A DNA stretch of 64,000 bases from positions 1,728,001-1,792,000 of the forward strand of contig OY969474.1 in assembly GCA_963700145.1 (NCBI GenBank). The letters are read 5' to 3'. Of this stretch, positions 21,501-47,548 are shown piece by piece. Within the stretch, counting starts at the first letter, position 1. Each line of letters opens with the position of its first letter. Both the position numbers and the translations under genes were made by a program. The notes below the pieces were generated by a model. It did no database searches and was not told the origin of the DNA. It saw nothing but the letters and a program-made list of their open reading frames with translations. This DNA comes from an uncultured Acidobacteriota bacterium. Its GTDB lineage: Bacteria; Acidobacteriota; Thermoanaerobaculia; Multivoradales; UBA5704.

Positions 21501-21740
21501 GAGCGCCTCGCGGTGCCGGTCCCCGCGCAGATGCGCCGCACGCTGAGCCTGCCGCGCCACCGCCTGGGCCTCCTGGTCGCGGCCCTCGAGGATGAGCTCC
21601 TCGACGCTCGCCAACGGATCGGCGGCCGGCGCCGGGCGACTCGCCACCGCCGGCGCCGCGCTGGACGCCGCCGCGCCCCAAGCCGCGAGGAGCACGGCGT
21701 ACCGGCACGTCCGGACCTGCGCCATTGCGGAGAAGGCCAT
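18507..21740 (-). CDS. TPR-repeat + CHAT (caspase-HetF) domain protease, probably exported
   Basis: Helical TPR-like N-terminus; CHAT motifs LIVVPHGELHYLPFAAL, LLHIAAHG, LVVLSAC, VISTLWDIDD, PRFWAAF. Start set at ATG 21740 (alternative 21725), after the upstream stop at 21752. Confidence 0.9.
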   Translation of the reverse strand: MAFSAMAQVRTCRYAVLLAAWGAAASSAAPAVASRPAPAADPLASVEELILEGRDQEAQAVARQAQRAAHLRGDRHREALSLFLLGAAELGAGDLRAAASDFERSAELFETQGDRFSAWMALWPLGLIERTERRPEQALAHHRQALRLLSEVKASSARFAPQGLEYLGRWFAMPPDLLREFRLRPEAAKPTLLRVAQAMSRKAAVVALLDTGSAEEAELELSRARELSDGLGGMFEEELAIILGDLRRRQWRLDEARGIFRQALGRASAARTWEILAFLIEIEIASGRPEEALPLSERALAVTRGGEPTAEFSALVLRARALSLGGQGAAAADTLREALFFARAAGNLRWQAFVYKQLARLALKAEQPEQAAAHLESAVQLLQTADAPDDEARTWLDLSQVYARFDARASASAALEKARALAQQIGSRLLGGWVELLAAIERFRTDQGSASEVSEALMATLALPEVREIVSREEGQLLLGVFSELAQMTAGNPAAPGKPALPGEKTRLVDLQVLPLFVQGYAHYQRGELAAAREPWLAALAAAPRRDLEVGLLAMIGRSYGREGKDEEAIDHLTRAVAAVEQTVADVRLEEFVAGYLGSDKQTLFADLIDLLVRQGRPADAFDYAERARSRAFLQGLGSPRLEPGYAGSQLAADARNLRAQIQDSEQRLLAAPAGERARLTADLGRARERYQSLLVRLKVTGRGAAPPTHFEPQRLQAVRESLAPGTSLISYFVASQVHAWVLDRETFRHVVLPAGAEDLRNAACWIDELRRQGGGRGARPLDPRCEGEIVRPEALYEKLVAPLRGDLRHRRLIVVPHGELHYLPFAALRDPQTGRSLLEDYTLTYAPSASAVGFLRQLESPVQGRALVLGEPEELDPALRSLPAARREAEIIARLLGTRPLLGAEATEHRLSELSGEVDLLHIAAHGIYDPANPLFSRIVLAPGGGRDGNLEVHEILTDLDLSGVNLVVLSACRSAVGERSRGDEVVGLTRALLDAGSPGVISTLWDIDDEAAAVLMEELYRRLVAGASAAEALREAQLALLRGSLYRDPRFWAAFSLTGDPQGRWHPAEPEERRP

Positions 21741-21751
21741 TCCAGAGGCGA

Positions 21752-22228
21752 TTATGGTTTTGCCTTGGTCACCGTCACCACATCCGACGTGCAGACTACC
21801 TTCGGCATCTCGATCGCCGGCCACTTATCCGTCTGTTCGCCCCGGTCGAAGTAGGTTCGAAGGTCCAAGTGCTCGCTTTGCGCCACCACTGCCGCGACCA
21901 CGTCGAACTGATCGCCGACGTCGACCGGCAGACCGAAGATCACGTCGGTCTCCCAGAAGGCGGTGTCGTGATTTACCCAGCCTTCCTGCTGCGGCCACCA
22001 CAGGTTGCGTGGTCGTCTCGTCTCGTGCCGGGCGAAGACCCAGATGTTGCCGCCCGGCGGTACCTCCGCCCGGACCCGGACCTTCATGCCGCCAGCCACC
22101 TGCTGTCCGGGCTGCGGATCAAGCAGCTCGACTCGACACTCGGCGGCGCCGGCCTGGGCCGCGAGACAGTCGGCCACGGGCATCGGAGCGAGCAGGGAAA
22201 CGAGGATCAGCACGCGTTCGAAGCTCAT
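21752..22228 (-). CDS. Small exported beta-rich hypothetical protein
   Basis: 158-aa ORF, GGAGG RBS, N-terminal hydrophobic signal, packed between the caspase and CHAT genes. Confidence 0.75.
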   Translation of the reverse strand: MSFERVLILVSLLAPMPVADCLAAQAGAAECRVELLDPQPGQQVAGGMKVRVRAEVPPGGNIWVFARHETRRPRNLWWPQQEGWVNHDTAFWETDVIFGLPVDVGDQFDVVAAVVAQSEHLDLRTYFDRGEQTDKWPAIEMPKVVCTSDVVTVTKAKP

Positions 22229-31515: not shown

Positions 31516-33966
31516 TTAGAAGCTCGTACCGACGCTGAATTGAAACGACTCGAAGCGATCGCCGGGCACCGGGTCGAGGTTGTACGAATAGATGAAGCGG
31601 AGCGGGGCGCCGAAGACCGGCACCAGCACCCGCAGCTCGGCCCCGGCCGTGGTGCGCAGGCCCGACAGGTCGATCGACTCCCCCTCGCCGAAGACGTTGC
31701 CGCCGTCGGCGAAGAGCAGCAGCCGGAACGGCCCGCCGAGCAGGAAATGATACTCCAGGTTGATCTGGACCATGCTGTCGCCGCCCAGGGCGAAGCCGTT
31801 CTCGTCGAGCAGGATGTTCCCGTCCTCGTCGCGCAGCACGAGCGAGCGGAAGCGGTGGCCGCGGATGCTGTTGTCGCCGCCCAGGAAGAAGCGCTCGAGC
31901 GGGGCGAGCTCGCGGCCGCTGAAGGGGTCCACCAGCCCGGTCTTGATGTTGAAGGCGAGCACGGTGCGCGCCGGCGCCCTGGTCATCGGCTGGAAGAAGC
32001 TGAAGGCGGCCTCGGGGCGGATGAAGTAGTTGTCGCCGCCCAGGAAGCCCCCGGCGTACTCGACACCCAGGTTGAAGCGGCGGCCGCGGGTCGGCTCGAA
32101 CGGGTTGTCGCGGCTGTCGTAGCTGTAGGCCGGACGCAGCGAGGAGTTGTCGATGGTGACGAAGCGCAGGGCCTGCGGGTCCGGGATCGGGTTGCCGACG
32201 TCGTCGAAGAGGCGCTGGGTCTCGTCCTCGAGGACCGACCGCAGGTAGGTGACGCCCGCCTGCTGGAAAAGACCGAGCTGGCGGCCGTAGGTCACCGAGC
32301 CGCCGCGGCTGCTGCGCCGGAACTGCTGGTCGCTGGCGACCCGGAAGTCGAGGTCCTGGTCGAAGGCGCGCACGCCGATCGACTGCGGCCGGTCGAGGAA
32401 CCAGGGCACGTAGTAGGAGAGGTCGAAGTAGTCGCGGAAGCGGCCGGTCTGGAAGGCCAACCCCACCTGCTCGCCGCGCCCCAGGAAGTTCTTGGTGTTG
32501 ATCGCGAACTGGCCGAAGAAGCCGTCGAGCTCGCTCCAGCCGCCGCCGAACTGCAGCTCCGTGCGCTCCTTCTCGGCGCCCTTGAACAGCAGGTGGACCT
32601 GCTTGGCCTCGGTGTTCTGGTCGAAGGTGACCGGCTCCTCCTTGTCGAGCTCGAAGTAGCCGAGCTGGTTGATCTTGAAGATCGAGTTGCGCACCGCGCC
32701 GATGTTGACGACGCCGCCCTCGTGCAGCCGCAGCTCGCGGCGCAGCACCTTGTCCATGGTGCGGTCGTTGCCCTCGAACTCGATGCGCCCGACCTTGAAC
32801 TGCTCGCCCTCGCTGATCCGCACCACCAGGTCGGCGACGTTGCCCGGCTTCTCCACCAGCTCGCCGTCGACGCGGGCGAAGATGTAGCCGGTGTTGTGGT
32901 AGGTCTCGGTGATCGCCTTGGTGCCGTCGTCGATCGCCTTCTGGCGCAGCCAGCTCCCCGAGCGGTGCTCGAAGGCGCGCAGCAGCGCCTGGTCGGTGTA
33001 GATCTCGTTGCCCTCGATCGACACCTCGCCGAACTTCCAGCGCTCGCCCTCCTCTATGGGGATGGTGATGAACATGCGGCGTTTTTCGCGAGGCGGCTTA
33101 CCGCCGCCGGGCCGGTCCTCGGGGGCGTTGGGGTTGCTGGCGCGGACGTCGATCTTGGGCTCGCCGATGACCACGTTCTTGTAGCCGGCGCCGCGGTAGA
33201 GGTCCCGCACCTTGTCGAGGTCCTCCTGCAGGCTGGCCGGGTTGTAGATGTCCTTCTTGGTGATGCGCGAGAGGATGCCGCTCTCGTTGGTCTTGCGCAT
33301 CAGGACGCGGAGGCGCGGGCCGGAGAAGACGGAGTTGCCCTCGAAGCCGATGTCGGCGATCCGCACCCGGTCGCCCTCGTCGACCTTGAAGACGACGCGC
33401 TTCTCGGTCGGGGTCAGCTCCTCGATCGTGTAGTCGGCGGTGGCGAAGCGGAAGCCCTTGTCGGCGTAGGCCTCCTCGATCATCTCCTTGACGCGGTACA
33501 GCTCGCCGAGGTTCAGCGGATCGCCTTCCTTCAGGCGGATGCCCTTGGCGGAGATGTCGTCGAGCAGGTCGTTGCGCGAGATGCGCTTCATCCCCTGGTA
33601 GTCCACCGACCGGATGGTCGGCCGCTCGACGACCGTGATCGTCAGGCGCACCCCCCCTTCCGGGGTGGGCTGGGCGTCCACCTGGATGTCGTCGATCAGG
33701 TTGCGGTCCCAGAGCGCCTTGACGTTCTGGTCCAGGCGCACCGGGTCGAGCGCCTGGAGGCGCTCGAGACCCAGGTAGTAGAGGAGGGTCTCCTCGGAGA
33801 GGGCACGCAGCCCCTGGAACTCGATCGCGTCGATCCGCTTGCCGGCCAGCGGCTCCTGGGCGAGGAGGCCCGGGGCGGGGAGCAGAAGGGCGGCGGAGAG
33901 TCCCCAGACCGCGAGGCGACGAACAAGGGACCAGCTCGGGAGTACGCGGGTCGTCACGGCTTTCAC
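31516..33966 (-). CDS. bamA: Outer membrane protein assembly factor BamA
   Basis: POTRA repeats, NFLGRG, FFLGGDNSIRGH, C-terminal FQFSVGTSF. Confidence 0.95.
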   Translation of the reverse strand: MKAVTTRVLPSWSLVRRLAVWGLSAALLLPAPGLLAQEPLAGKRIDAIEFQGLRALSEETLLYYLGLERLQALDPVRLDQNVKALWDRNLIDDIQVDAQPTPEGGVRLTITVVERPTIRSVDYQGMKRISRNDLLDDISAKGIRLKEGDPLNLGELYRVKEMIEEAYADKGFRFATADYTIEELTPTEKRVVFKVDEGDRVRIADIGFEGNSVFSGPRLRVLMRKTNESGILSRITKKDIYNPASLQEDLDKVRDLYRGAGYKNVVIGEPKIDVRASNPNAPEDRPGGGKPPREKRRMFITIPIEEGERWKFGEVSIEGNEIYTDQALLRAFEHRSGSWLRQKAIDDGTKAITETYHNTGYIFARVDGELVEKPGNVADLVVRISEGEQFKVGRIEFEGNDRTMDKVLRRELRLHEGGVVNIGAVRNSIFKINQLGYFELDKEEPVTFDQNTEAKQVHLLFKGAEKERTELQFGGGWSELDGFFGQFAINTKNFLGRGEQVGLAFQTGRFRDYFDLSYYVPWFLDRPQSIGVRAFDQDLDFRVASDQQFRRSSRGGSVTYGRQLGLFQQAGVTYLRSVLEDETQRLFDDVGNPIPDPQALRFVTIDNSSLRPAYSYDSRDNPFEPTRGRRFNLGVEYAGGFLGGDNYFIRPEAAFSFFQPMTRAPARTVLAFNIKTGLVDPFSGRELAPLERFFLGGDNSIRGHRFRSLVLRDEDGNILLDENGFALGGDSMVQINLEYHFLLGGPFRLLLFADGGNVFGEGESIDLSGLRTTAGAELRVLVPVFGAPLRFIYSYNLDPVPGDRFESFQFSVGTSF

Positions 33967-34114
33967 CTCATGGAGTCGGTTTTGCCCCCGGCCAGACCCG
34001 GCCGCCGGGGGCTCCTGGAATGTCGGGGGGAAGCTTAGCAGGGTTGGGTGCTCGGGGCGTCGTTCGCCCTATACTGGAAATCACTAAGAAACCATCCTGG
34101 CCCGGCTGCGAGAC

Positions 34115-34732
34115 ATGGACGTCGAGAACACCACGGGTTTGGTGCGAGAGGCCCTCGCCGGCGATCCGGCCGCCTTGAACCGGCTGGTGGCCTGCCTGAC
34201 ACCCGTCGTCCAGGCCCGCGTGGCGAGGACCCTGCTCCGCCAGTCGCACCTCGGCGGCGGCCGCAACGTTCGCCAGGAGGTCGAAGACCTGACCCAGGAG
34301 ATCTTCCTTTCGCTCTTCGCCAACGGCGGGCGCGTGCTGCGCCGCTGGCAGCGCGAGCGCGGTCTGTCGCTGCACAACTTCGTCGGGCTGGTGAGCGAGC
34401 GTCTGGTGGCGTCGGCCCTGCGCAGCGGCAAGCGGAACCCGTGGAAAGAGGAGCCCACGCCGACGGAGAACCTCGACGCGGCGGCGCTCGACAACGGACC
34501 GGAAGAGGTCACGGCGAGCCGCGAGGAGCTGCGCCTCCTGCTCGACGGGCTGCGGGAGCAGTTGAGCCCGCTGGGCCGCCAGCTCTTCGAGCTCCTCTTC
34601 GTCCAGGAGCTGTCGGTGCCGGAGACGATGGCCGCCAGCGGCTTGTCCGCCGACGCGATCTACGCCTGGCGGAGCCGTCTGCGCCGCCTCGCTCGCGAGC
34701 TGCTGGCCGAGCTGTCAGGAAAGAGTACGTAG
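34115..34732 (+). CDS. ECF-type RNA polymerase sigma factor
   Basis: LVREALAGDPAALNRL; region 2 EVEDLTQEIFLSLF...LRRW; region 4 HTH LSVPETMAASGLSADAIYAWRSRLRR. Confidence 0.9.
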   Translation: MDVENTTGLVREALAGDPAALNRLVACLTPVVQARVARTLLRQSHLGGGRNVRQEVEDLTQEIFLSLFANGGRVLRRWQRERGLSLHNFVGLVSERLVASALRSGKRNPWKEEPTPTENLDAAALDNGPEEVTASREELRLLLDGLREQLSPLGRQLFELLFVQELSVPETMAASGLSADAIYAWRSRLRRLARELLAELSGKST

Positions 34733-34742
34733 GCGCGAAAGA
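34713..34742 (+). promoter_or_regulatory. Putative ECF-sigma promoter motif, copy 1 (TGTCAGGAA-N13-GCGAAAGA)
   Basis: Overlaps the sigma 3' end, 19 nt before the next ATG; same spacing as copies 2 and 3. Confidence 0.65.
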
Positions 34743-34761
34743 CCAGGAAGGATGGAGCAGG

Positions 34762-35538
34762 ATGAGCGAGGACCGGCTATTGCGCGATCTAGGGCACCTG
34801 GCGCGGGAGGAGAGCGAGGCCGAGCAGAGACGCCTCGACGAGCGCTGGGATCGGCTGGCCGCCGGGACGCTGAGCGCGGAGGAAGAGGCGGAGCTGCGCG
34901 CCCTCGCCGAAGCTTCACCCGAAGCCCGCCGGGCGTTTGAAGCCTTCCGGCCGCTCGGCGCCGACTTCCAGGCGCGCGTGGTGGAGGCGATCCGCGCGCA
35001 GGAGCAGGCCGGTAAGTCGGCGAAGCTCTTGCCCTGGCGACAGCACGCTCCCCGTGTCGCCGCCTGGGGCACCGCGGCGGCCGCGGCCGCCGCCTCTCTG
35101 ATGATGCTCCTGCGCCCGCTGGCGCCGCTGCCCGGCTATGCGCTGGCCGAGATCAGCGGCGGCTCCCGCGCGCTGCGGGGGGAGGCGATGGAGGTGCAGG
35201 AGTTCGCGCCGGGCGACGACTTCCAGGTGGTCCTCCGCCCGGAGACCCAGGTCGCGCGGGCGAGGTCCCTGACGACGCAGGCCTTCCTGCTCCGCGGCGC
35301 GGAGCTGCGCGACCTGACGGTGCGGAGCCACGTCGAGCCCAGCGGCGCGGTCAAGCTGGAAGGCTCGCTCGACGACGATCTCCCACCCGGGACCTGGACC
35401 CTCTGGGCGGTCGTCGGCCGGCGGGGCGAGCTGCCGGACCCCGAGGCGCTGCGGTCCCTGGCCGCGCGATCGACGGTCCGGGAACGAGACTGGGTGGCGG
35501 TCCGGACGACCGTCCGGGTCCGTCCCCGGGCACCCTAG
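34762..35538 (+). CDS. Putative anti-sigma / sensor membrane protein
   Basis: Follows the ECF sigma; N-terminal WDRLAAGTLSAEEEAELR helix, central hydrophobic segment VAAWGTAAAAAAASLMMLL, beta-rich C-terminal domain. Confidence 0.75.
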   Translation: MSEDRLLRDLGHLAREESEAEQRRLDERWDRLAAGTLSAEEEAELRALAEASPEARRAFEAFRPLGADFQARVVEAIRAQEQAGKSAKLLPWRQHAPRVAAWGTAAAAAAASLMMLLRPLAPLPGYALAEISGGSRALRGEAMEVQEFAPGDDFQVVLRPETQVARARSLTTQAFLLRGAELRDLTVRSHVEPSGAVKLEGSLDDDLPPGTWTLWAVVGRRGELPDPEALRSLAARSTVRERDWVAVRTTVRVRPRAP

Positions 35539-35540
35539 CC

Positions 35541-38096
35541 GTGCCGCCGCTTCGCTGCCGCAGCGTCTTCTTCCTCCTCTTCGCGCTCGGCACGGCCTGT
35601 GCCTCCCCGCCAAGCTCGCCTCCGCCGGAGGTGGAGTACGCGGGCTGCGCAGCCGTGCTCGTGCCGGGGCCGGTCTGCGTCCTGGGACCGGAACGGGAGC
35701 TCCGGCTCTGGGTCGGCGCTCCGCCGGAGGCGCGGATCGAGCTCCGAGCCGACGGCGGGCCGCTCGACGCCGCGGCAGAGGCCGTTCAGGAGGGGCAGCG
35801 GTTCGCCCTCACCCTGCCCTCCGGGGTGAAGAGCCTGGAAGTGATCGTCGCGGCCGAGGAGGGGCGGACGACGTGGTCCCTGCCCCTCGTGGAGAGGAAG
35901 GGCGAGGGGCCCGGAGGGCCGCCGGCGGGGCAAGGCACGTCCCGCGACCTGCGGCGCCAGGTCGCAGAGACGCTGATGCGCGTGCACGGCGAGGTCCAGG
36001 ACCGCAAGCTCGCCGCCGCCCGCGAGCTGCTGCACGCCATTCGCCTCCCGCCCAAGGCGCCGGCGGAATCCCGCTATCAAGTGGCCTACTACCGCGGGCT
36101 GCTCGCGGCCAAGAACGGGGACTACCGCGCGGCGCTAGCCGAAGTGCAAGACGCCGTGGTCATCGCCAAGCGGGTAAAGCTGGAGCGCGAGCATCGCCTG
36201 GCGGAAGAAGAGCTGGCCCTGCTCCTGCTCGGAGTAGGCCGGTCGCGCGAGGCCGCCGAGCTCCTCGACCGCCTGCGCCGGACGCCGCATTCCGCGAACC
36301 CTTGCGAGGAAGCCAACCTCCTCAGCAACCAGGCCTGGGCGACGCTGCTGGCTCGCGAGGCCGGCGAGGGCCTGGACGATCCCACGCTTCTCTTCGAGCG
36401 CGCGCTGGCGACGTACGCGACCTGCGAGAGCGCCACGCCCGCGCACGGGGCCAACGTCCTGCTCAATTTGGCGCTGGCTCACCTGCAGGAAGACCGCGTG
36501 GCGCAAGCCAAGGAAGCCCTGGCCCGGGCGCACCGGCTCGAGCCTCATCCGTCCGTCCCTCTCAGGCTCTGGCGGCTCGATCTGGAGGCGCGGATCGCCT
36601 TGCGCGAGGGGCGGCCCGCCGCGGCGCTGGCTCGGTTCGACGAGCTGGCGGAGCTCGCTCTCGAGACCAGCTCCGCCGACGGCCGGCTGCGGGCCGCGTT
36701 CGGGCAGGCGCAGTCGCACGAGGCCCTCGGGGATCGCGCCGCGGCCCTGGAGACGCTCGGCCGGGCCGAGGCCCTGCTGGACGAGCAGAGCCTCCAGATC
36801 CCCGTGCAGGAAGGGCGGGAGACCTTCCTGGCGACGCGCCAGGCTCTGGTGAGCCTGCACGTCGCGATCCTCCTCGACCAGGGCCGCCAGGCCCGGGCCC
36901 TGGACCTGGCGCGCCACGCCCGGTCGCGGGTGCTGCGGCAGCTGGAGCGCGGCGACCGGCTGGCGAGCCTGACGCCGGACCGGCGGGCCCGCTGGGAGCG
37001 GCTTCTTCTGAGCTACAAGGAGAGGCGCACGGCCCTGGAGGAGCGAGCGAGAGACGACTGGAAGCTGCCCGGCGACCAGCTCCGCCGGGAGCAGGCCGCG
37101 AGAAAGGCGGGGGCGGAGACCGCGAAGAGGGATCTGGACCAAGCCTTCCTGATGCTCGAAGACCCGGGAGCGCCACTGGAAGGGAGACCGCCGCTGCCGC
37201 GACCCGGAGAGCTGGTCCTCGCCTATCAATCGCTGCCTGACGGCTGGGTCGGCTTCGCGGCCAATGGAGAGACCGTCGCGGCGCACCGCTTCGAGCTGCC
37301 GCCGGAGGTCCTGTCCCGGCCCGAGGAGCTTTCCCGGCGGCTGCTCCTGCCGTTCAGCGGTTCGATCCGGCAGGCCCGGCGGATCCGCATCCTGCCCAGC
37401 GGCCCGCTGCGGGGCGTCGATTTCCATGCGCTGCCGTTCGACGGGGACGTCCTCCTGGCGAGCGCTCCCGTCGTCTATGGGCTGGACCTTCCCGTGTCCG
37501 CGGGCCCCGCGGAGCCTTCCGGGCGGCGCGCCCTCCTGGTGGCCGACCCCCGGGGCGACCTGGCGGGCGCGCTCGCGGAGGCGCGAGCGGTCCGCAAGGT
37601 CCTGGCATCCGGCTCACAGCCCTGGACCACCACGGAGCTGGAGCACGCGGCGGCTTCGGCGGACGCCGTGCGCGGCCGCCTGGCCGCCGCCGATCTCCTC
37701 CACTACGCCGGCCACGGCACCTTCTCGGGGTTCGGCGGCTGGGAGAGCGGCCTGCTCCTGGCCGAGGAGACCCAGTTGACCCTCGGCGACCTCCTGGCGC
37801 TCCAGCGGGTGCCGGCCTGGGTCGTCCTTTCCGCCTGTGACACCGGCCGGTCGTCCGCCGAGACCCCCGTCGAGAGCCTCGGCCTGGCCCACGCCTTCCT
37901 CCTCGCCGGCTCGCGGGCCGTCGTCGCCTCCACCCGGCCTGCCGACGACCGCACGGTGCCGGCGTTCTTCACCGACCTGTACCGGCAGTGGAGGCTGGAG
38001 CCGGACCTCGCCGTGGCGCTGCAGCGCGCCCAGCTCGCCTGGCGGCAGCGGAGTCACGGAGCGGACTGGGCGGGCTTCCGCCTGTTCGAGCCCTGA
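35541..38096 (+). CDS. TPR + CHAT domain protease, predicted lipoprotein
   Basis: Lipobox-like FLLFALGTAC; TPR-like helices; CHAT motifs LLHYAGHG, VVLSACDT, GLAHAFLLAGS, WAGF. Confidence 0.9.
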   Translation: MPPLRCRSVFFLLFALGTACASPPSSPPPEVEYAGCAAVLVPGPVCVLGPERELRLWVGAPPEARIELRADGGPLDAAAEAVQEGQRFALTLPSGVKSLEVIVAAEEGRTTWSLPLVERKGEGPGGPPAGQGTSRDLRRQVAETLMRVHGEVQDRKLAAARELLHAIRLPPKAPAESRYQVAYYRGLLAAKNGDYRAALAEVQDAVVIAKRVKLEREHRLAEEELALLLLGVGRSREAAELLDRLRRTPHSANPCEEANLLSNQAWATLLAREAGEGLDDPTLLFERALATYATCESATPAHGANVLLNLALAHLQEDRVAQAKEALARAHRLEPHPSVPLRLWRLDLEARIALREGRPAAALARFDELAELALETSSADGRLRAAFGQAQSHEALGDRAAALETLGRAEALLDEQSLQIPVQEGRETFLATRQALVSLHVAILLDQGRQARALDLARHARSRVLRQLERGDRLASLTPDRRARWERLLLSYKERRTALEERARDDWKLPGDQLRREQAARKAGAETAKRDLDQAFLMLEDPGAPLEGRPPLPRPGELVLAYQSLPDGWVGFAANGETVAAHRFELPPEVLSRPEELSRRLLLPFSGSIRQARRIRILPSGPLRGVDFHALPFDGDVLLASAPVVYGLDLPVSAGPAEPSGRRALLVADPRGDLAGALAEARAVRKVLASGSQPWTTTELEHAAASADAVRGRLAAADLLHYAGHGTFSGFGGWESGLLLAEETQLTLGDLLALQRVPAWVVLSACDTGRSSAETPVESLGLAHAFLLAGSRAVVASTRPADDRTVPAFFTDLYRQWRLEPDLAVALQRAQLAWRQRSHGADWAGFRLFEP

Positions 38097-38124
38097 GCGC
38101 CCGGCCCGCCACGCCGCCTGCCTC

Positions 38125-38154
38125 TGTCAGAAACCGCGCCCCGGCGGCGAAGGA
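38125..38154 (+). promoter_or_regulatory. Putative ECF-sigma promoter motif, copy 2 (TGTCAGAAA-N13-GCGAAGGA)
   Basis: Intergenic, 37 nt before the ATG at 38192. Confidence 0.7.
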
Positions 38155-38191
38155 TCATTGCGTCTGCGTCAAAAACCAAGGAGATCGGACC

Positions 38192-39763
38192 ATGAGGACC
38201 AAGCAACTGTTCTGGATCGCTCCCCTGTTCGCGATCGCGATGAGCTCCTGCACGACGCTGCGGCCACAGCCGATGGACACCGCCCAGGCCTGCGCCAGCT
38301 GGCGGTGGATCGGGATCAGCCGGCCCGAAGCCAAGTGCCCGGAGGTCCCGGGCTGGACCGTGCAACCACTGTTTACCTCGATTCGGGAGAAGCCGGCGGA
38401 CGACTGCGGGAAGAAAGACGACAAGGACGACAAGAAGGTGCTCGCCTTCGCCCCCGCCCCCGGGCTGATCCGGGAGCTCAATCGTTTTTGCGTGTACGAG
38501 GCCTCGCCGCAGTCGCTTGGGGGCGCTCCGCTCCCGCCGCCCGCGAGCGCCGAGCTGGTGCGGATCGATCGGGACTGCGCGGCCCTGTCGGCCTCCGGCG
38601 AGAACCATATGAGGTGGCCCTGGGGCAACTTCTACCGGCGCCTCCTCAACCAGGCCGGCATCCCGGGGGAAACCTTCACGATCGACAACCCGTTCGGCGT
38701 GCGGCTGGCCTTTCTGGACACCGAGCCGACGCGCGAAGAGATCCCCCGGCGACAGGGCCGCTCGCCGCACGGCTACGCGCTCGCCCACATCGCCCGCCAC
38801 CTGGTGTGCCCGAGAGGGAGCTGTGCGGCGCGGATCACCACCCAGCTCGCGCTCCCGATCGTCGAGTTCGACCCGCAGAGCCGGGAGCTCACCAAGGTCG
38901 ACACCGAGCGTGGGGGCTTTATCGGCATGCAGAGCACTCTCGCCCAGGCCATCTGGAGCGAAGTGGACGCCTGGCAGAGGGACCGGCGGCAGGAGCATCT
39001 CGTTCTCAACCTGTCGCTGGCCTGGGACGGCGAGCTCTTCAGCGGCCTCGACGAGCAGCAGGTCGAGGAGATGAAGGCGGGAACGCAGGCCGTTTATCGT
39101 GCCCTGCAGTACGCGTCGGACTTCGACGTCCTCGTGGTTGCCGCCGCGGGCAATATCAAGGGCGAGCCCTGCGCCAACTTCGGGCCTCTCTTGCCGGCTG
39201 CCTGGGAAGGGCGATGTGAGAAGGGAGCGCCACGCCTCTACGCCGTAGGCGGGGTGGATGCGAAGGGTCATCCCCTGGTCAACGCCCGCCCGGGCGGCAT
39301 GCCGCGGCGGGTCGCGTACGCCGACGACGCCGTGGCGGCATGCCCCAGCCGCAGGGGACGCACGGCAAGGCTCACCGGCAGCTCGGTCGCGGCGGCCGTC
39401 GTCGCGTCGATCGCTTCCGTCGTGTGGGCCGCCTACCCCGATCGCAGCTCCGGCGAGATCATGGACATGCTCGATGCGAGCGGCGAGGAGCTGCCCATGG
39501 CGGCGGACTTCTGGCGCAGGAGCGCCTCCGCATCTCCTGCCCATCCCAGGGTCCACAAGCTGTCGCTCTGCAACGCGCTCGCGACGGCCTGCGACGAATA
39601 CGGGTGCGCGTCCAAGCCCTCGTGCGCCACGCATGCGCCCGAGCCTCCCGATCCCTGGCGCCCTCTCTACACCAGGACCTGGCGGCGCGGCTCCTGTCAG
39701 CCGTGGCTCTACCCCCAGCCCGAGGTCGATCCTTGTCCGGTCTGCCCGCCGTGGAAGCCTTGA
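38192..39763 (+). CDS. Divergent subtilisin-like (S8) serine protease, predicted lipoprotein
   Basis: AAGGAG RBS; lipobox-like FAIAMSSC; RLAFLDT (Asp), SPHG (His), VLNLSL, VVAAAGN (oxyanion Asn), LTGSSVAA (Ser). Confidence 0.82.
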   Translation: MRTKQLFWIAPLFAIAMSSCTTLRPQPMDTAQACASWRWIGISRPEAKCPEVPGWTVQPLFTSIREKPADDCGKKDDKDDKKVLAFAPAPGLIRELNRFCVYEASPQSLGGAPLPPPASAELVRIDRDCAALSASGENHMRWPWGNFYRRLLNQAGIPGETFTIDNPFGVRLAFLDTEPTREEIPRRQGRSPHGYALAHIARHLVCPRGSCAARITTQLALPIVEFDPQSRELTKVDTERGGFIGMQSTLAQAIWSEVDAWQRDRRQEHLVLNLSLAWDGELFSGLDEQQVEEMKAGTQAVYRALQYASDFDVLVVAAAGNIKGEPCANFGPLLPAAWEGRCEKGAPRLYAVGGVDAKGHPLVNARPGGMPRRVAYADDAVAACPSRRGRTARLTGSSVAAAVVASIASVVWAAYPDRSSGEIMDMLDASGEELPMAADFWRRSASASPAHPRVHKLSLCNALATACDEYGCASKPSCATHAPEPPDPWRPLYTRTWRRGSCQPWLYPQPEVDPCPVCPPWKP

Positions 39764-39852
39764 CCACGGCACCGACGAGCCTCCTTCTCTAACACTGCGC
39801 CGGCTGTGCGTCTCCCGCCAGCCGGCGCGTTTCCTCTTCCGACTGCCTCGGT

Positions 39853-39882
39853 TGTCAGAAATCCGCCGCCGGCCGCGAAGGA
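39853..39882 (+). promoter_or_regulatory. Putative ECF-sigma promoter motif, copy 3 (TGTCAGAAA-N13-GCGAAGGA)
   Basis: Intergenic, 24 nt before the ATG at 39907, followed by a GGGAGG RBS. Confidence 0.7.
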
Positions 39883-39906
39883 CCTCCACAAAGGGAGGAT
39901 TTCGCC

Positions 39907-42153
39907 ATGGCCATCACGATGCAGGGCAATTGGACCGTCTCCGTGAAGAGCAAGAGCGCCGCGTTTCCGCAGCGCTTCGTCATCGCGGGGGCAAGCTCCG
40001 GCAACGGGACGTACGCCGGGGACACTTCGACGCCGCCGGTCACGGTCGTCGGCGCCAACTGGACGATCCGCGTCGAGCACAACCCGGGCTCCGGGTTCAT
40101 CGATTCGGCGGAGCAGATCAAGTTTCCGACCACCACGCTGACCGAGTACCGCTTCGACATCCAGTCGAACGACAGTGGCGCCGACCAGGACTTCAACGAC
40201 CTGATCCTGACCTGCAGGACGCCGCGCACCGACACCGACTTCGTCCTCTTCGGCAACGTGAGCTGGTACAAGGGCTGCTCCTGGAACCCCTGTTTCCCGC
40301 GCTGGCTAGTCTTCGACACGTTGCCGGCGGTCCGCGAGGCGCTCAAGAACCCGCTCTTCCGCGAACCGCTCGAGAAGCTCTATCCGGACCGGCTGTACGA
40401 GGTGCCGCCGCGCATCGGGCCCATTCCCGATCCGCCTCCGTTCCGGCCGCTGGTGGTGCCGCTCGAGGGCCTCACGGCCCTGCCGCCCAAGCAGGCGCAG
40501 CTCATCAAGCTGCGGGCCCTGGACCTCGAAGGGCCCGAGCTCAAGACCGCCGCGAAGCGGAACGTCCAGGCGGCCGCGGACCGGCCCGCCGACGACGAGC
40601 TCGAAGAGAGGTCGATCCTCTCGGCGCGGGCGGTCGAGGTGTCCCGGCCGGCGCCGATCGCCGACTTCAAGCTCGAGCGCATCGAGATCGGCCGCCTACA
40701 GGATCAGTTCCGCTTGCTCTGCCAGACCGGGCCTCTCGCCGGCACGGTGCTGCGGTTTCTCGAGTACGACCGCACGGCGGCCGAGCTGGCGGGCGGACCG
40801 TATACCGGCACCGGCACGCGGGAAACGCTCGGGATCTGCGTCACCGACCGCAACGGCAACTACGTCTTCCGCTTCCGTCGCCCGACCGCGAGCTTCCTCA
40901 ACGAGGCCAACGTGGACGTGGCGGCCGGCGAGGACGAGGTGGTGCAGAGCATGCCGGACGTCATCGTCCAGGTCGTCGACACCGTCCACCCCTCCGGCTT
41001 CTCCTACGAGAGCGCCCCCTACTGGAACGTGCCGCTCTTCAAGCGGATCAACATCTGCGCGCCGCTCGTCGGCCGTCTCCCGACGGCGTGTCAGGGGCAC
41101 AACGCCATCCAGGCGATCGGCAACATCTTCATCGGCGCTCCGACCGCTCCCCCGCCGCCGGGACAGCCGCCCGGCTACGGCCCGCGGGTCGGCTTCAGCA
41201 ACTTCCTCGGCGGCACCGGCAGGATCACCGCCAAGAACACCCTCCCGAACGTGCCGCCGGCGCGCTGCGCCGCCTGGGCCGGCCGGCTCGACCTCTTCGC
41301 CTGCTTCATCGACCAGCCGGCGGTGAAGCACTACACGATCCGCTACCGGCGGCACGGCACCGCCGCCTGGAGCAGCTTCTTCCAGGAGAAGTACACCCAT
41401 CCCAAGATCGCCAACATCAGCCTGCCCGGCTACTCGGGCGACCCCGTGGGGCCCTTCGACGTGCCGCTCCACGTCGACGGCGGCCCGGCTTCACCGACCA
41501 AGGCCTACCTCAACATCGAGAGCGACAACGCCTGGGTCCTCACCCACCGCGACCGCAAGGCGGTGATCTCGTCGTGGCTCTATGCCGCGACGCCCGGCTC
41601 GGTCGACTTCCGCATCGAAGGGTACGACTCGGCGGGCAACAAGGTGTCCGGCGCGGACGACATGGTGACTCTCTACATCGACAACACCGGCCCCGACTTC
41701 ACGATCTCCGAGGTGACGATGGCCAGCACCCCGGGCGGCGACTGCGCGCTGTTCACCGTGCCCGCCGCGGCGCCCGCGACCCCGCTGACGGTGAAGTTCA
41801 AGGCGAACCAGCTGCAGGGATTCATGCACGACTACGGCTTGAGCGTGCGGAAGGGGAACATCGGCGGCTTCGGCATCACCGGGAGCCCCGCCGGGCTCAT
41901 CAGCGGCAGCTACACGCACGGCGACGATCTCGCCTGCAGCCAGTTCGTCGGGACGTTGGATACCGGCGGCACACTGGGCCTGGTAACCGTGGACCTGGCG
42001 CCGGCGAGCGGCCGCTGGCTGGAGCCCGGGCAGCCCTTCTGCACCTTCGCGGTCAACCTCGGGTGCAGCACGCGGGTCACCAACGGCTACAACTCGGCGG
42101 TGGCCGGTTACGGACCCGTCCAGTACTTCCTGGGGATCCAGGCCGGTTCGTGA
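39907..42153 (+). CDS. Hypothetical 748-aa beta-rich protein with acidic DxDFND motif in the N-terminal domain
   Basis: Strong RBS, GC-biased third positions, no Sec signal; IQSNDSGADQDFNDLIL; central VTDRNGNYVFRF...PDVIVQV segment. Confidence 0.85.
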   Translation: MAITMQGNWTVSVKSKSAAFPQRFVIAGASSGNGTYAGDTSTPPVTVVGANWTIRVEHNPGSGFIDSAEQIKFPTTTLTEYRFDIQSNDSGADQDFNDLILTCRTPRTDTDFVLFGNVSWYKGCSWNPCFPRWLVFDTLPAVREALKNPLFREPLEKLYPDRLYEVPPRIGPIPDPPPFRPLVVPLEGLTALPPKQAQLIKLRALDLEGPELKTAAKRNVQAAADRPADDELEERSILSARAVEVSRPAPIADFKLERIEIGRLQDQFRLLCQTGPLAGTVLRFLEYDRTAAELAGGPYTGTGTRETLGICVTDRNGNYVFRFRRPTASFLNEANVDVAAGEDEVVQSMPDVIVQVVDTVHPSGFSYESAPYWNVPLFKRINICAPLVGRLPTACQGHNAIQAIGNIFIGAPTAPPPPGQPPGYGPRVGFSNFLGGTGRITAKNTLPNVPPARCAAWAGRLDLFACFIDQPAVKHYTIRYRRHGTAAWSSFFQEKYTHPKIANISLPGYSGDPVGPFDVPLHVDGGPASPTKAYLNIESDNAWVLTHRDRKAVISSWLYAATPGSVDFRIEGYDSAGNKVSGADDMVTLYIDNTGPDFTISEVTMASTPGGDCALFTVPAAAPATPLTVKFKANQLQGFMHDYGLSVRKGNIGGFGITGSPAGLISGSYTHGDDLACSQFVGTLDTGGTLGLVTVDLAPASGRWLEPGQPFCTFAVNLGCSTRVTNGYNSAVAGYGPVQYFLGIQAGS

Positions 42154-42554
42154 GCGTGTACGTGCTGCTGGCGGGGGCTCTGGGGGTCTGGCGCCTGACC
42201 CACTTGCTGTGGGGCGAGGACGGTCCGTGGGACCTCCTCGCCCGCCTCCGCCGGCGGGCGGGAGACGGGTTCTGGGGCAACCTGCTCGACTGCTTCTTCT
42301 GCTGCAGCGTGTGGGTTGCCCTGCCGTTCGCCCTGCTTCTCGGGAGCCGCTGGCAGGACCGGCTGCTCCTCTGGCCGGCGCTCTCGGCGGGAGCCATCCT
42401 GCTTCAGGGGCTGGCGTTCCCGCGGACGCTCGAGACTCGCGCCAGCGCGCCGGCACTCCCGCCGGCGCCCTTTACCGAAGACGAGGAACCCGACGATGTC
42501 CTGCTGCGGCGACAAGAGACACCAGTTCCAGGTCTTCCACACGCTTCGACCTGA
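42150..42554 (+). CDS. DUF1360-like membrane protein with CxxC
   Basis: GTG overlapping the upstream stop (GTGA); WRLTHLLWGEDGP...LLDCFFCCSVWVA. Confidence 0.78.
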   Translation: MSVYVLLAGALGVWRLTHLLWGEDGPWDLLARLRRRAGDGFWGNLLDCFFCCSVWVALPFALLLGSRWQDRLLLWPALSAGAILLQGLAFPRTLETRASAPALPPAPFTEDEEPDDVLLRRQETPVPGLPHAST

Positions 42555-42750
42555 CCCCGAGCCGCCGGCCCCGACGGCCGTTCCGCCGGTCTCGCGGGTG
42601 CTCTTCGAATATGTGGGGAGGACCGGGCTCACGGCCACCGGCCCGCTCACCGGCCAGCACTACCGCTTCGAGGGGCCCGGCATGCGCGTCGAGGTGGACG
42701 GCCGCGACGCGCCCTCGCTCGCGGCGGTCCCCAACCTGCGGCGGGTCTGA
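42496..42750 (+). CDS. Small protein with N-terminal MSCCG motif
   Basis: GAGGA RBS then ATG 42496; MSCCGDKR...FEYVGRTGLTATGPLTGQHYRFEGPGMRVEVDGRDAPSL. Confidence 0.75.
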   Translation: MSCCGDKRHQFQVFHTLRPDPEPPAPTAVPPVSRVLFEYVGRTGLTATGPLTGQHYRFEGPGMRVEVDGRDAPSLAAVPNLRRV

Positions 42751-45315: not shown

Positions 45316-46932
45316 CTACCGCTCCTGGATCGACACCTTCTTGACGCTGACGAACGGCCCGCTGCCGGCCGTTGCCGTCAGCGCCTGCTCGCCGTGGCCC
45401 GGGACGAAGGTCACGTCGAGCTCGCCCGTCCACTGCCCGGCCGCCTTCAGCGCCGCCACCTCGTCGGTGACGTCGAAGCTGCGGCTCGTCTCCGCCGCGT
45501 GCTCGGGGTGGTCGAAGAGCGCCACGGTGCCGACGAAGTTCTTCATCTTGGGATTCGGCGTCGCGCCCGCCGGGAGGTTCAAGTAGACCTCGTAGTGCGC
45601 GCCGTGGCGGAGGAGCTTCACCCCTTCGAGCACCAGCCGCACGCGGCCGGGGTCGGGCCCGGCGAGGGTGAGGATGCGCTGGCTGGCCGCCTGCGGCAGC
45701 GCCACCTTGACCGACGTCCGCCGCGCCCCGAGCTTGGTGTCCGCGGCCGCGCCCGAGACCAGCGTCTTGGGCGCCGCCGGCGGCGGGCCTCCCGCCTCGC
45801 CGGTGAGCGGGCCCTCGTCGCAGAGGACGACGTTGTTCACCGGCAGCCCTTCGTACTGGTAGTCGAGCTGGGTGGCCATGTTGAGGATCTGGCAGCCGGT
45901 GAGGGTGACCGCCGTCTTGGTCTCGTCGAAGAAAGTGAACTTCTGGTTCCGCCATTCGTCGTTGGTGGTGTTGGCCCGCCCGGCTCCGAGGTTGAGCCAC
46001 ACCTGCCACAGGCGGTCGATGTTGGCGTGGTGGAGCCAGAAGATCGGATCGCGCGCCGCGCACGCCGGGTCGCTCATCCAGCCGCTGCCGCCGACGGCGA
46101 CGTGCACCGCGTTGTGGGGCTGGAACTCCAGCTCGCCGGTGCCGTTGCCGAAGTGCACCGGCTGCGCCGTGAAGTTGCCGCCGAAGGTCTCGTCGGAGAA
46201 CGTGTTGGCGACGCACCCGGCGGCGCAGGTCGCCGTGCGACAGCCGCAGAAGTTCTTGTGCTGATCGTCCATCGCGTCGTCGTCCGAGGCGTCGCCGTCC
46301 GAGATGCACGGGTTGCCGGCGACGACGTTGTTGCAGTTCGACGCCCGCGCCGAGACGAAGAGCGGGTTCGAGGCGTCGGCCGGGCTGCGGAACGGCTCCG
46401 GCAGGTCGCGGTTGGCGGTGTTCTCGTAGTCCCAGTAGGGCAGCGCGAAGTCGGCCGTGGGATCGCCGCTCGCCTCGCGCACCGCGGCGCGCAGGATGCG
46501 CTCGAAGTAGTAGACGTACATGCGGTGCCAGGAGAGGAAGAAGAAGCTCGCGTGCTGGCAGGTGCCCCAGGCCTCCGGCGGGTTCGGCCCGGAGAAGGGC
46601 GTGGCGGGGCAGGTGGTGTCGCCCGGCCGCGGGTAGTCGTGCATGTTGGCCTGGTAGAGCCAGCTCGTCACTTCGGTGGCGGCCCGCGACTGCATCAGCG
46701 CCACCCCGGCCTTGTAGCGGCTGAGCTCGTCCGCCGAGAGGGTGTTGATCTCGCGCCGGGTGAAGACGGTCGGCGGCGGCGGCTCGGTCGTCGAAGGCTC
46801 GGTGGTGGCGGTGGTGTCGGCGGTGTCGGTGTCGTCGCCGCCGCCGTCGCCGCCGTTGCAGCCGACGAGCAGCAGGACCGTGAAGGGCACGGCCGCCCAC
46901 AGCCAGCTCCGTCGGGCACGTCGCTTGCGCAT
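45316..46932 (-). CDS. Tyrosinase / polyphenol oxidase (type-3 copper) lipoprotein
   Basis: GGAGGAG RBS; lipobox LVGC; CuA QANMH/CQH/FLSWHR; LPYWDY; CuB PHNAVH...DPIFWLHH; C-terminal YEVYLNLP domain. Confidence 0.93.
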   Translation of the reverse strand: MRKRRARRSWLWAAVPFTVLLLVGCNGGDGGGDDTDTADTTATTEPSTTEPPPPTVFTRREINTLSADELSRYKAGVALMQSRAATEVTSWLYQANMHDYPRPGDTTCPATPFSGPNPPEAWGTCQHASFFFLSWHRMYVYYFERILRAAVREASGDPTADFALPYWDYENTANRDLPEPFRSPADASNPLFVSARASNCNNVVAGNPCISDGDASDDDAMDDQHKNFCGCRTATCAAGCVANTFSDETFGGNFTAQPVHFGNGTGELEFQPHNAVHVAVGGSGWMSDPACAARDPIFWLHHANIDRLWQVWLNLGAGRANTTNDEWRNQKFTFFDETKTAVTLTGCQILNMATQLDYQYEGLPVNNVVLCDEGPLTGEAGGPPPAAPKTLVSGAAADTKLGARRTSVKVALPQAASQRILTLAGPDPGRVRLVLEGVKLLRHGAHYEVYLNLPAGATPNPKMKNFVGTVALFDHPEHAAETSRSFDVTDEVAALKAAGQWTGELDVTFVPGHGEQALTATAGSGPFVSVKKVSIQER

Positions 46933-47014
46933 GGCAGCTCCTCCTCCCTGAAAGGGATGTTCCAGCAAAGAATGAACCACTCGGGCGGGCTTGGCTAGTC
47001 CCCCCCGGGGACGG

Positions 47015-47548
47015 CTAGCGCGCGTGCAGGGCGAGGCGCCGGAAGCGGAGAGCGGGCCCGGCGGCCGCGGCCGCCTCGCCGGCCGGCACGAAGGTCACCC
47101 GCAGCTCCCCCGTCCACCGGCCCAGCTCGCGCAGGGCCCGGGCGGCGGGGGCGAGGTCGAAGGTGCGCATCGCCTCGGGGGCCCGACCCGGAGGGGCGTA
47201 GAGCGCCACGAGACCGAGGAAGTGGGGGCCCTTGGGGTCCGGCTTCGCTCCTTCGGGGAGGTTCAGGTAGACCTCGTAGGCGACGCCGGGGCGCAGCAGC
47301 TCGAGGCCCTCGATCGCCAGCCGCAGGCGGCCGGGCTCGGCCACCTCGAGCAGGCGCTCCTTGGCCTCCGCCGGCAGCGGCACTTCAACCGTCACCGGCT
47401 CGGCGCCCAGCTCGACCTGCGTCGTTTCGCTCGCGGCCAGCACCTTGGTCTCGTTCACCTCGCCGCCCGGTGCCGCGGCGCCGCCCGCCGCGGGCGGCTG
47501 GCAGCCGGCGAGCGCCAGGAGGAGGAGGTAGGGCGCCAAGCTGCGCAC
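47015..47548 (-). CDS. Lipoprotein homologous to the C-terminal domain of the adjacent tyrosinase
   Basis: Lipobox LAGC; shares RLxxEGxxLLRxGxxYEVYLNLPxGAxPxPK and WTGELxVTFVP with the tyrosinase. Confidence 0.85.
   Translation of the reverse strand: MRSLAPYLLLLALAGCQPPAAGGAAAPGGEVNETKVLAASETTQVELGAEPVTVEVPLPAEAKERLLEVAEPGRLRLAIEGLELLRPGVAYEVYLNLPEGAKPDPKGPHFLGLVALYAPPGRAPEAMRTFDLAPAARALRELGRWTGELRVTFVPAGEAAAAAGPALRFRRLALHAR

Follow-up and report, generated by a model that had tools for sequence, protein, structure and literature searches.

The window analyzed here is a stretch of 64,000 nucleotides (nt) from an uncultured Acidobacteriota bacterium (contig OY969474.1, positions 1,728,001 to 1,792,000). 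It encodes a divergent extracytoplasmic function (ECF)-type sigma factor of 205 amino acids (aa) at 34115..34732 on the + strand, followed on the same strand by genes for a candidate anti-sigma factor, a TPR-CHAT protease, a subtilase-like protease, and a large cargo protein. Three copies of the motif TGTCAGRAA-N13-GCGAA, likely promoters of this sigma factor, lie on the + strand at 34713-34742, 38125-38154, and 39853-39882 and end 19, 37, and 24 nt before the ATG codons at 34762, 38192, and 39907. These positions, the strand, and the distances had been listed in an initial annotation and were exact on re-reading of the sequence. The motif resolves into a -35/-10 pair, with T-36 G-35 T-34 C-33 A-32 G-31 R-30 separated by a 16-bp spacer from C-13 G-12 A-11 A-10 (numbering as in Table S1 of PMC7776599). 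ECF promoters are bipartite, have a spacer of 16–18 bp, and face a gene; the repeats share this layout, and their counts are specific to the 16-bp spacer.

Copy 1 has TGTCAGG at 34713-34719 (-36 to -30) and CGAA at 34736-34739 (-13 to -10), with a predicted transcription start near 34749. Copy 2 stands ahead of the subtilase gene (predicted start near 38161), and copy 3 stands ahead of a variable cargo slot (predicted start near 39889). The initial annotation placed copy 1 in the last codons of the sigma gene. This is true of its -35 box, but the -10 box comes after the stop codon, a TAG (34730-34732) that falls in the spacer of copy 1 in this genome. Most related sigma factors read through both boxes and are 217 aa long, compared to 205 aa here. 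A logo of 111 sites gave a conserved core of TGTCAGAAA-N13-GCGAA, so the motif as first drawn stands through GCGAA, and its terminal (G/A)GA shows no conservation.

The motif is enriched at its own spacer length. Allowing up to three mismatches, the window has four matches where 0.39 are expected, a number reached in none of 100 shuffles, although the search pattern had been fitted to the copies themselves. In the whole genome (5.46 Mb, 71.5% G+C), TGTCAG-N16-GCGAA occurs six times, each time with RAA after the first box, while 13 other spacers (10 to 23) give three occurrences in total. A matrix of 63 sites from other genera recovered the same six sites at the true spacer (threshold, 24 bits) and none at any of 12 other spacers, a result that is not fully independent because the window supplied the seed pattern.

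The sigma factor is remote from described families. It scores below the cut-offs for Pfam Sigma70_r2 and TIGR02937, and its profile aligns end to end with the ECF sigma factor 9isn_F (E value 3e-10). Its length and domain content, sigma2 and sigma4 only, agree with those of ECF sigma factors (~200 aa), with matches below the curated cut-offs. No paralogue was found among the ~36 sigma70-family genes of the genome, and no homologue was found in a plasmid collection. Named homologues occur in Thermoanaerobaculia, other Acidobacteriota, and Polyangiales; named homologous loci are from Thermoanaerobaculia. The family comprises 352 clusters at 50% identity with E values up to 1e-30. Because the group falls mostly under the Pfam thresholds, it may have been missed by ECF surveys.

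The region upstream of the sigma gene has a different promoter type. As the annotation stated, it lacks a copy of the motif and has a TATACT (34070..34075, +), probably a sigma70-type -10 element, for which no matching -35 was found. A TATAAT/TATACT-like hexamer is present 15–110 nt upstream of the sigma gene at 34 of 46 orthologous loci and in 2 of 138 coding control windows, with a hexamer list that was chosen after the loci had been viewed. A strict sigma70 scan of the window region returned no promoters, and its four terminator-like matches are at shuffle level (3.1). A reverse-strand candidate at TTCGC upstream of the sigma gene was rejected, as its -35 half has no conservation. The upstream gene (31516-33966), which we take to be BamA-like from its open reading frame (ORF), is divergent from the sigma gene and therefore would not read through into it. 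At four related loci (L141, L162, L176, and L177), an antisense copy of the motif lies 60–175 nt upstream of the sigma gene and faces the divergent gene, and for this reason the sigma factor appears to drive leftward neighbours there as well.

Motif and sigma factor across relatives

The sigma factor was found in 48 of 100 related genomes. The strict motif is present in 34 of these 48 and in 2 of the 52 that lack the sigma factor, which is read as a contrast and not as a P value. Of the 97 strict sites in the relatives, 62 are less than 20 kb from the sigma gene. Another 33 lie elsewhere, spread over 18 genomes that have the sigma factor, and some of these belong to parts of the same cassette located on a different contig. 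When three bases were added to the spacer as a frame-matched control, 101 genomes gave 3 sites, compared to 103 at the true spacer.

Fifty orthologous loci were compared, and 46 were counted after removal of four truncated ones (L007, L009, L011, and L170). At 35 of the 46, a copy of at least 16 bits lies in the 3' end of the sigma gene, ~50 nt before the anti-sigma start. None of the 46 has a sense copy of that strength within 400 nt upstream of the sigma gene. The tail copy holds its position wherever the sigma stop falls. The -10 box comes after the stop at 6 of the 35 loci, including the one in the window, and lies within sigma codons at the other 29, where 14 different tripeptides are encoded. 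A fixed position despite shifting stops and variable peptides indicates that selection acts on the DNA. A site also precedes the subtilase gene at 42 of the 46 Acidobacteriota loci that hold one, and in many relatives a third and a fourth copy stand ahead of unrelated genes. The sequence of the spacer varies across families; its length and both boxes are kept.

Two residues of the sigma factor were compared to the promoter bases they are expected to read. From the alignment with 9isn_F and the RpoE numbering, we take Y183 to occupy the R171 position of RpoE and S100 the N84 position. The site template left the tested promoter positions unscored, and L011, the same locus as L182, was skipped in these counts and in the tree. 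Sites beside Tyr-bearing sigma factors have -31G in 93 of 100 cases, those beside Ser-bearing ones have CG at -13/-12 in 77 of 81, and those beside sigma factors with Arg at N84 end this pair in C in 13 of 16. In the excerpt of Dataset S3 consulted from the mutagenesis study of Todor et al. (PMC7776599), the value for -31G with Tyr at R171 is 0.86, Ser at the N84 position gives CG 0.46 as the top of 16 dinucleotides, and Arg at N84 has GC and AC as its top two, in agreement with the sites beside Arg-bearing sigma factors. In one clade, the residue at R171 is Asn or Ser and that at F175 is Tyr, and 10 of 10 sites there have -31T. Overall, the sigma residues appear to predict the motif in a way that is consistent but not many-fold. 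A further pairing, Glu at the V79 position with -11A, was dropped, since Arg gives A at 27 of 31 sites and the template rewarded A.

The sigma family is present in 34 of 201 Polyangia-class genomes. At the Polyangia loci (L215-L254), the order and orientation of the four cassette genes vary widely; a genome can have up to seven sigma paralogues, and the motif has clade-specific variants.

Cassette proteins and the wider predicted regulon

The gene behind copy 1 encodes a candidate membrane anti-sigma factor of 258 aa (34762..35538, +) with no Pfam family. Its AlphaFold2 (AF2) model (predicted local distance difference test [pLDDT] score 85.8) has a helical N-terminal domain (helices 3–85), an Ala-rich hydrophobic segment at ~99–117, and an Ig-like C-terminal domain with structure matches of Z up to 8.8. 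No Cys or His zinc ligand is conserved among 43 anti-sigma sequences. A modelled complex with the sigma factor scored 0.76, compared to 0.00 for the best control, with contact agreement of at least 89% and partner pLDDT of at least 76; the mark for this score is reached by 116 of 157 solved pairs and 2 of 215 mismatched pairs. The model places the first 95 anti-sigma residues on both sigma domains (sigma residues 21–71 and 136–197), which is how the N-terminal helical bundle of a class I anti-sigma factor sits on sigma2 and sigma4, a feature seen here in the model only. The pass may reflect in part a likeness to solved class I complexes.

Three nt past the anti-sigma stop begins the ORF of a TPR-CHAT caspase-like protease of 851 aa (35541..38096, +; Pfam CHAT, E value 9.5e-35). 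Its catalytic dyad, H725/C766, is intact, and each residue is kept in at least 90% of 48 sequences. The N-terminus is lipoprotein-like (Cys20) by motif only, with lipobox-like sequences at 26 of 48 roughly called starts. No solved structure matched the protein by sequence at an E value of 0.001. Copy 2 precedes an S8 subtilase-like protease of 523 aa (38192..39763, +; Pfam Peptidase_S8, E value 5.4e-7) that is predicted to be exported. The triad D176/H193/S398 and N321 are conserved in 47 sequences, and the N-terminus is again lipoprotein-like (Cys20), by motif only.

The cargo gene behind copy 3 (39907..42153, +) encodes a protein of 748 aa; its family has no name and is widespread, with 444 homologues among 8000 scored. 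Its AF2 model (pLDDT 90.5) has an N-terminal LecB/PA-IIL-like lectin fold and several beta-sandwich domains. Residues 1–108 match 1gzt_A (Z 10.6, root-mean-square deviation 3.1, 101 residues aligned), a likeness of fold only. No Pfam or PDB sequence match was found for the protein, and a whole-chain Foldseek search gave template modelling (TM) scores of only ~0.1. Overlapping the cargo stop is a gene for a DUF1360-like small membrane protein (42150..42554, +; Pfam DUF1360, E value 6e-4, just under the cut-off), and an 84-aa Cys-Cys protein with no family (42496..42750, +) is the last gene of the probable cargo unit and recurs at ~9 loci. This pair trails different large cargo genes at seven loci (L139, L140, L146, L147, L148, L153, and L157). 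The arrangement suggests that the pair at 42150-42750 and the large cargo gene form a three-gene unit of their own.

Sites outside the locus extend the regulon beyond what the initial annotation could see. Besides the three local promoters, it would include two distal sites, at C1:3181915 and C1:1702107, and a doubtful one at C1:565370. The site at C1:3181915 (- strand) is perfect and precedes a gene for a 576-aa vWA-domain protein. Two other genomes (L263 and L280) have both the gene and the site, the latter with a different spacer sequence; on the basis of this conservation, the gene is probably a true regulon member. The site at C1:1702107 (- strand), also perfect, precedes a broken gene with a signal-peptide-like start, which has an early frameshift and is interrupted by an ORF resembling an insertion sequence; transposase-like ORFs are abundant in the region. 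The site at C1:565370 (- strand) overlaps the ribosome-binding site (RBS) and the ATG of an ORF of 69 codons that precedes a 564-aa gene, and the same sequence is found in one genome of the same genus; as a promoter it is doubtful. Weak distal sites at C1:4516328, 216240, and 2036240 were rejected as background.

Fifty first genes behind the motif in relatives (L139-L178 and L255-L294) were scanned, and 29 have no Pfam family. The others include S8/S53 proteases (n = 4), C1 and M23 peptidases, a fungalysin propeptide, a GMC oxidoreductase, PAN, FG-GAP, and vWA domains, and single cases of a TIR domain, a kinase-TPR protein, a sigma54 activator, and a phage tail-sheath protein (L283). Cargo genes behind the motif are thus swappable.

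Elsewhere in the window, a second CHAT-domain gene lies at 18507-21824 (- strand, 1105-aa ORF), and the sigma gene nearest to it is the one studied here. A tyrosinase gene with a DUF7868 domain is located beside a gene for a small stand-alone DUF7868 protein at 45316-47548 (- strand).

Proposed switch and alternative explanations

We conclude that the repeats are promoters of the adjacent ECF-type sigma factor and, with the proposed switch taken as a whole, assign this reading a probability of about 0.82. The part that identifies the motif as the promoter read by this sigma factor is very probable, judging from sequence comparisons. This identification, put forward in the initial annotation, is supported by fixed spacing and orientation, co-occurrence, fit to the specificity code, and covariation in Myxococcota. 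The absence of direct autoregulation in this genome is likely. The annotation also proposed that the sigma factor drives its anti-sigma factor and protease rather than itself; this agrees with the tail and upstream counts in this clade and does not extend to the whole family.

In the proposed mechanism, a housekeeping promoter would serve the sigma, anti-sigma, and CHAT genes in common, and at rest the sigma factor would be held by the membrane anti-sigma factor. An extracytoplasmic signal would activate the TPR-CHAT lipoprotein, which would cut the outer domain of the anti-sigma factor, and intramembrane proteolysis would then free the sigma factor, by analogy with DdvA. The freed sigma factor would fire copy 1, yielding more anti-sigma factor and CHAT protease with no added sigma factor. 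Such negative feedback, in which inhibitor and protease increase but sigma factor does not, would reset the switch. The sigma factor would also act on copy 2 (subtilase), on copy 3 (cargo), and on two or three promoters elsewhere in the genome. Our guess for the signal, made because the proteases look exported, is envelope attack or a proteolytic cue.

Several points weigh against this reading. The relatives are not independent of each other and many of their genomes are fragmentary, which bears on the co-occurrence. Fourteen of the 48 sigma-bearing genomes have no strict motif (several have relaxed forms), and the matrix used for tail copies was trained partly on the same tail sites. The code has exceptions and confounders. 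Asn at R171 comes with -31T at 9 of 9 sites, opposite to the prediction (G 0.69 in the mutagenesis data), Ala at N84 comes with mixed dinucleotides, and in a quick tree the shifts in motif reduce to ~3 clade-level events. CG is the commonest -13/-12 pair among all ECFs in the excerpted part of PMC7776599. The sigma paralogues of Polyangia may cross-read promoters. Two further points concern autoregulation: L009, dropped from the locus count, has a strong sense site 332 nt upstream of its sigma gene and no tail copy, and in Polyangia, a loose template (background of 3.6% per window) places a sense site upstream at 9 of 44 loci.

Together with weak upstream sense sites at L174 and L175, these last points favor an ordinary wiring in which the sigma factor is autoregulated through a degenerate or distant upstream site or through read-through. 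We consider this improbable here, given the empty 400-nt upstream regions of all 46 Acidobacteriota loci at the 16-bit threshold and the divergent upstream gene. A still smaller probability goes to the motif serving a different regulator, encoded at another place in the genome, as its promoter or operator, with the neighbouring sigma gene only travelling along. The genome does have ~36 sigma70-family genes, among them C1:2003138, whose product likewise has Tyr at R171, and the relevant entries of PMC7826278 predict TGTCA-type -35 boxes for both ECF37 and ECF41, but the -10 boxes given there differ (CGTT and CGTC, respectively). The motif is nearly absent where this sigma factor is absent and shifts with the sigma factor's own residues, the other 35 sigma genes listed are all more than 11 kb from any site, and an asymmetric, one-way form with a fixed spacer would be unlike a dimeric operator. 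Chance, or a by-product of coding or RBS sequence, has a negligible probability. Copy 1 overlaps the codons L-S-G-K, the site at C1:565370 covers an RBS and ATG, and relaxed CGTCAGGA forms show a reading-frame background; against this, copies 2 and 3 are intergenic, boxes and spacer length are kept while spacer sequence varies, and both the frame-matched control and the spacer-specific genome counts contradict it.

That CHAT is the protease releasing the sigma factor is, by analogy, about an even bet. The main competitor, which we hold to be appreciably less probable but a serious contender, accepts the promoters and assigns release to the subtilase or a general envelope protease, with CHAT an output or a processor of subtilase or cargo. 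Both proteases are under the sigma factor's predicted promoters and both look exported and active from their sequences, and some Polyangia loci have an anti-sigma gene with no nearby CHAT match. Moreover, in the excerpts consulted from PMC6061681 and PMC11506125, the DdvA dyad mutation was tested on unperturbed cells and the trigger was modelled. Pointing the other way, CHAT is translationally adjacent to the anti-sigma gene at nearly all Acidobacteriota loci, CHAT proteases cut an anti-sigma factor in type III-E CRISPR systems (PMC10028731, in part), and DdvA fuses the two.

A broader version of the promoter-and-switch reading is tentative and, taken whole, unlikely. It holds that this unclassified ECF group has a promoter in the 3' end of its own gene and produces a self-resetting pulse that refills inhibitor and sensor protease, never sigma factor, while deploying plug-in proteases, lectin-like or surface proteins, and, in one genome, the product of a phage tail-sheath gene against envelope attack, or in antagonism or predation. 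If it were true, promoter scans upstream of sigma genes would miss a whole class.

The genome has 15 CHAT genes, and seven sigma genes lie within 6 kb of one. CRISPR-free sigma/anti-sigma/CHAT cassettes are thus common, and our literature search turned up no experiments on a cassette of the split, exported kind. Another CHAT-linked sigma gene (C1:3130613-3131026) has GTAAC...CGCCTAA in its last codons, a string that resembles a DdvS-type promoter in the same tail position; this site was not recovered by a genome pattern search. The motif would make a proposed protease-controlled switch of soil bacteria easy to assay by promoter reporter, and it makes the predicted regulon readable across uncultured Acidobacteriota and Myxococcota. 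It also shows that the promoter of a non-autoregulated ECF can be recovered from the tail of the sigma gene, a place outside the upstream regions that published surveys searched. The ECF specificity code could be tested further on the natural residue-base swaps, one of which appears to be an exception to it.

Comparison with known systems

A literature search returned no paper on the motif or this sigma group, although supplements or subscription journals may hold one, and family words had no match in the portion of the PMC7776599 supplement consulted. The systems below are compared on the basis of excerpts from the cited papers. ECF41 and ECF37 (PMC7826278) share a -35 box starting with TGTCA and differ in the -10 box (CGTC or CGTT, compared to CGAA here); the C-terminal SnoaL extension of ECF41 is absent from the sigma factor in the window. 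ECF54, described in the same survey (Casas-Pastor 2021), shares part of the gene content, with a sigma gene near TPR-CHAT and subtilase genes, and has a predicted -35 box, GTATCAG, that shares TCAG. In the excerpted description, ECF54 is 100% actinobacterial, has no putative anti-sigma factor, and has a carboxypeptidase-regulatory-like gene at +1, whereas the +1 gene here encodes a membrane protein modelled to bind the sigma factor. The promoters also differ, with TGTCAGAAA / GCGAA here (111 sites) and GTATCAG / CTCC in ECF54. On described taxon, +1 gene, and promoter, the cassette stands apart from ECF54.

The wiring has a precedent in the SigH/RshA pair of Corynebacterium glutamicum (PMC3489674). 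Housekeeping promoters serve sigH-rshA there, and PrshA, a SigH-dependent promoter located within sigH, drives only rshA. The annotation had called the arrangement unlike usual ECF autoregulation; this is so at this locus, but it is not without parallel. SigH belongs to another sigma group with a GGAA-type promoter, and neither CHAT nor a subtilase is described in the excerpt. RshA is a soluble, zinc-binding redox sensor (PMC8999054, excerpted, on the Mycobacterium tuberculosis orthologue), unlike the anti-sigma candidate here.

A CHAT-controlled sigma factor is found in CASP-sigma/Csx30/Csx29 of type III-E CRISPR (PMC10028731), where a TPR-CHAT protease cuts an anti-sigma factor and frees an ECF-like sigma factor that has three sites in its own locus; the corresponding CHAT step is conjectural here. 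As reported in that excerpt, the system is cytoplasmic, RNA-triggered, and CRISPR-linked, whereas the protease here appears exported. No cas genes were identified among the locus genes examined, and no dedicated cas search was made.

A close parallel is DdvS/DdvA of Myxococcus xanthus (PMC6061681 and PMC11506125). Both systems combine an ECF sigma factor, a single-pass anti-sigma factor, and a periplasmic TPR-CHAT domain, and in both, several copies of one promoter in the locus define the regulon (GTAAn16CGT in theirs). The differences, as far as the excerpts describe DdvS/DdvA, are several. The window and nearly all relatives encode anti-sigma and CHAT in two ORFs (L010 has one long ORF), and the anti-sigma candidate has no zinc ligands, whereas DdvA has an N-terminal zinc domain. 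DdvS drives its own expression, while none of the 46 loci has an upstream sense site and the motif is different. The outputs are proteases and lectin-like cargo here and CBASS and CRISPR there. The cassette would work like DdvS/DdvA with its anti-sigma and CHAT parts split, but is not a member of that system.

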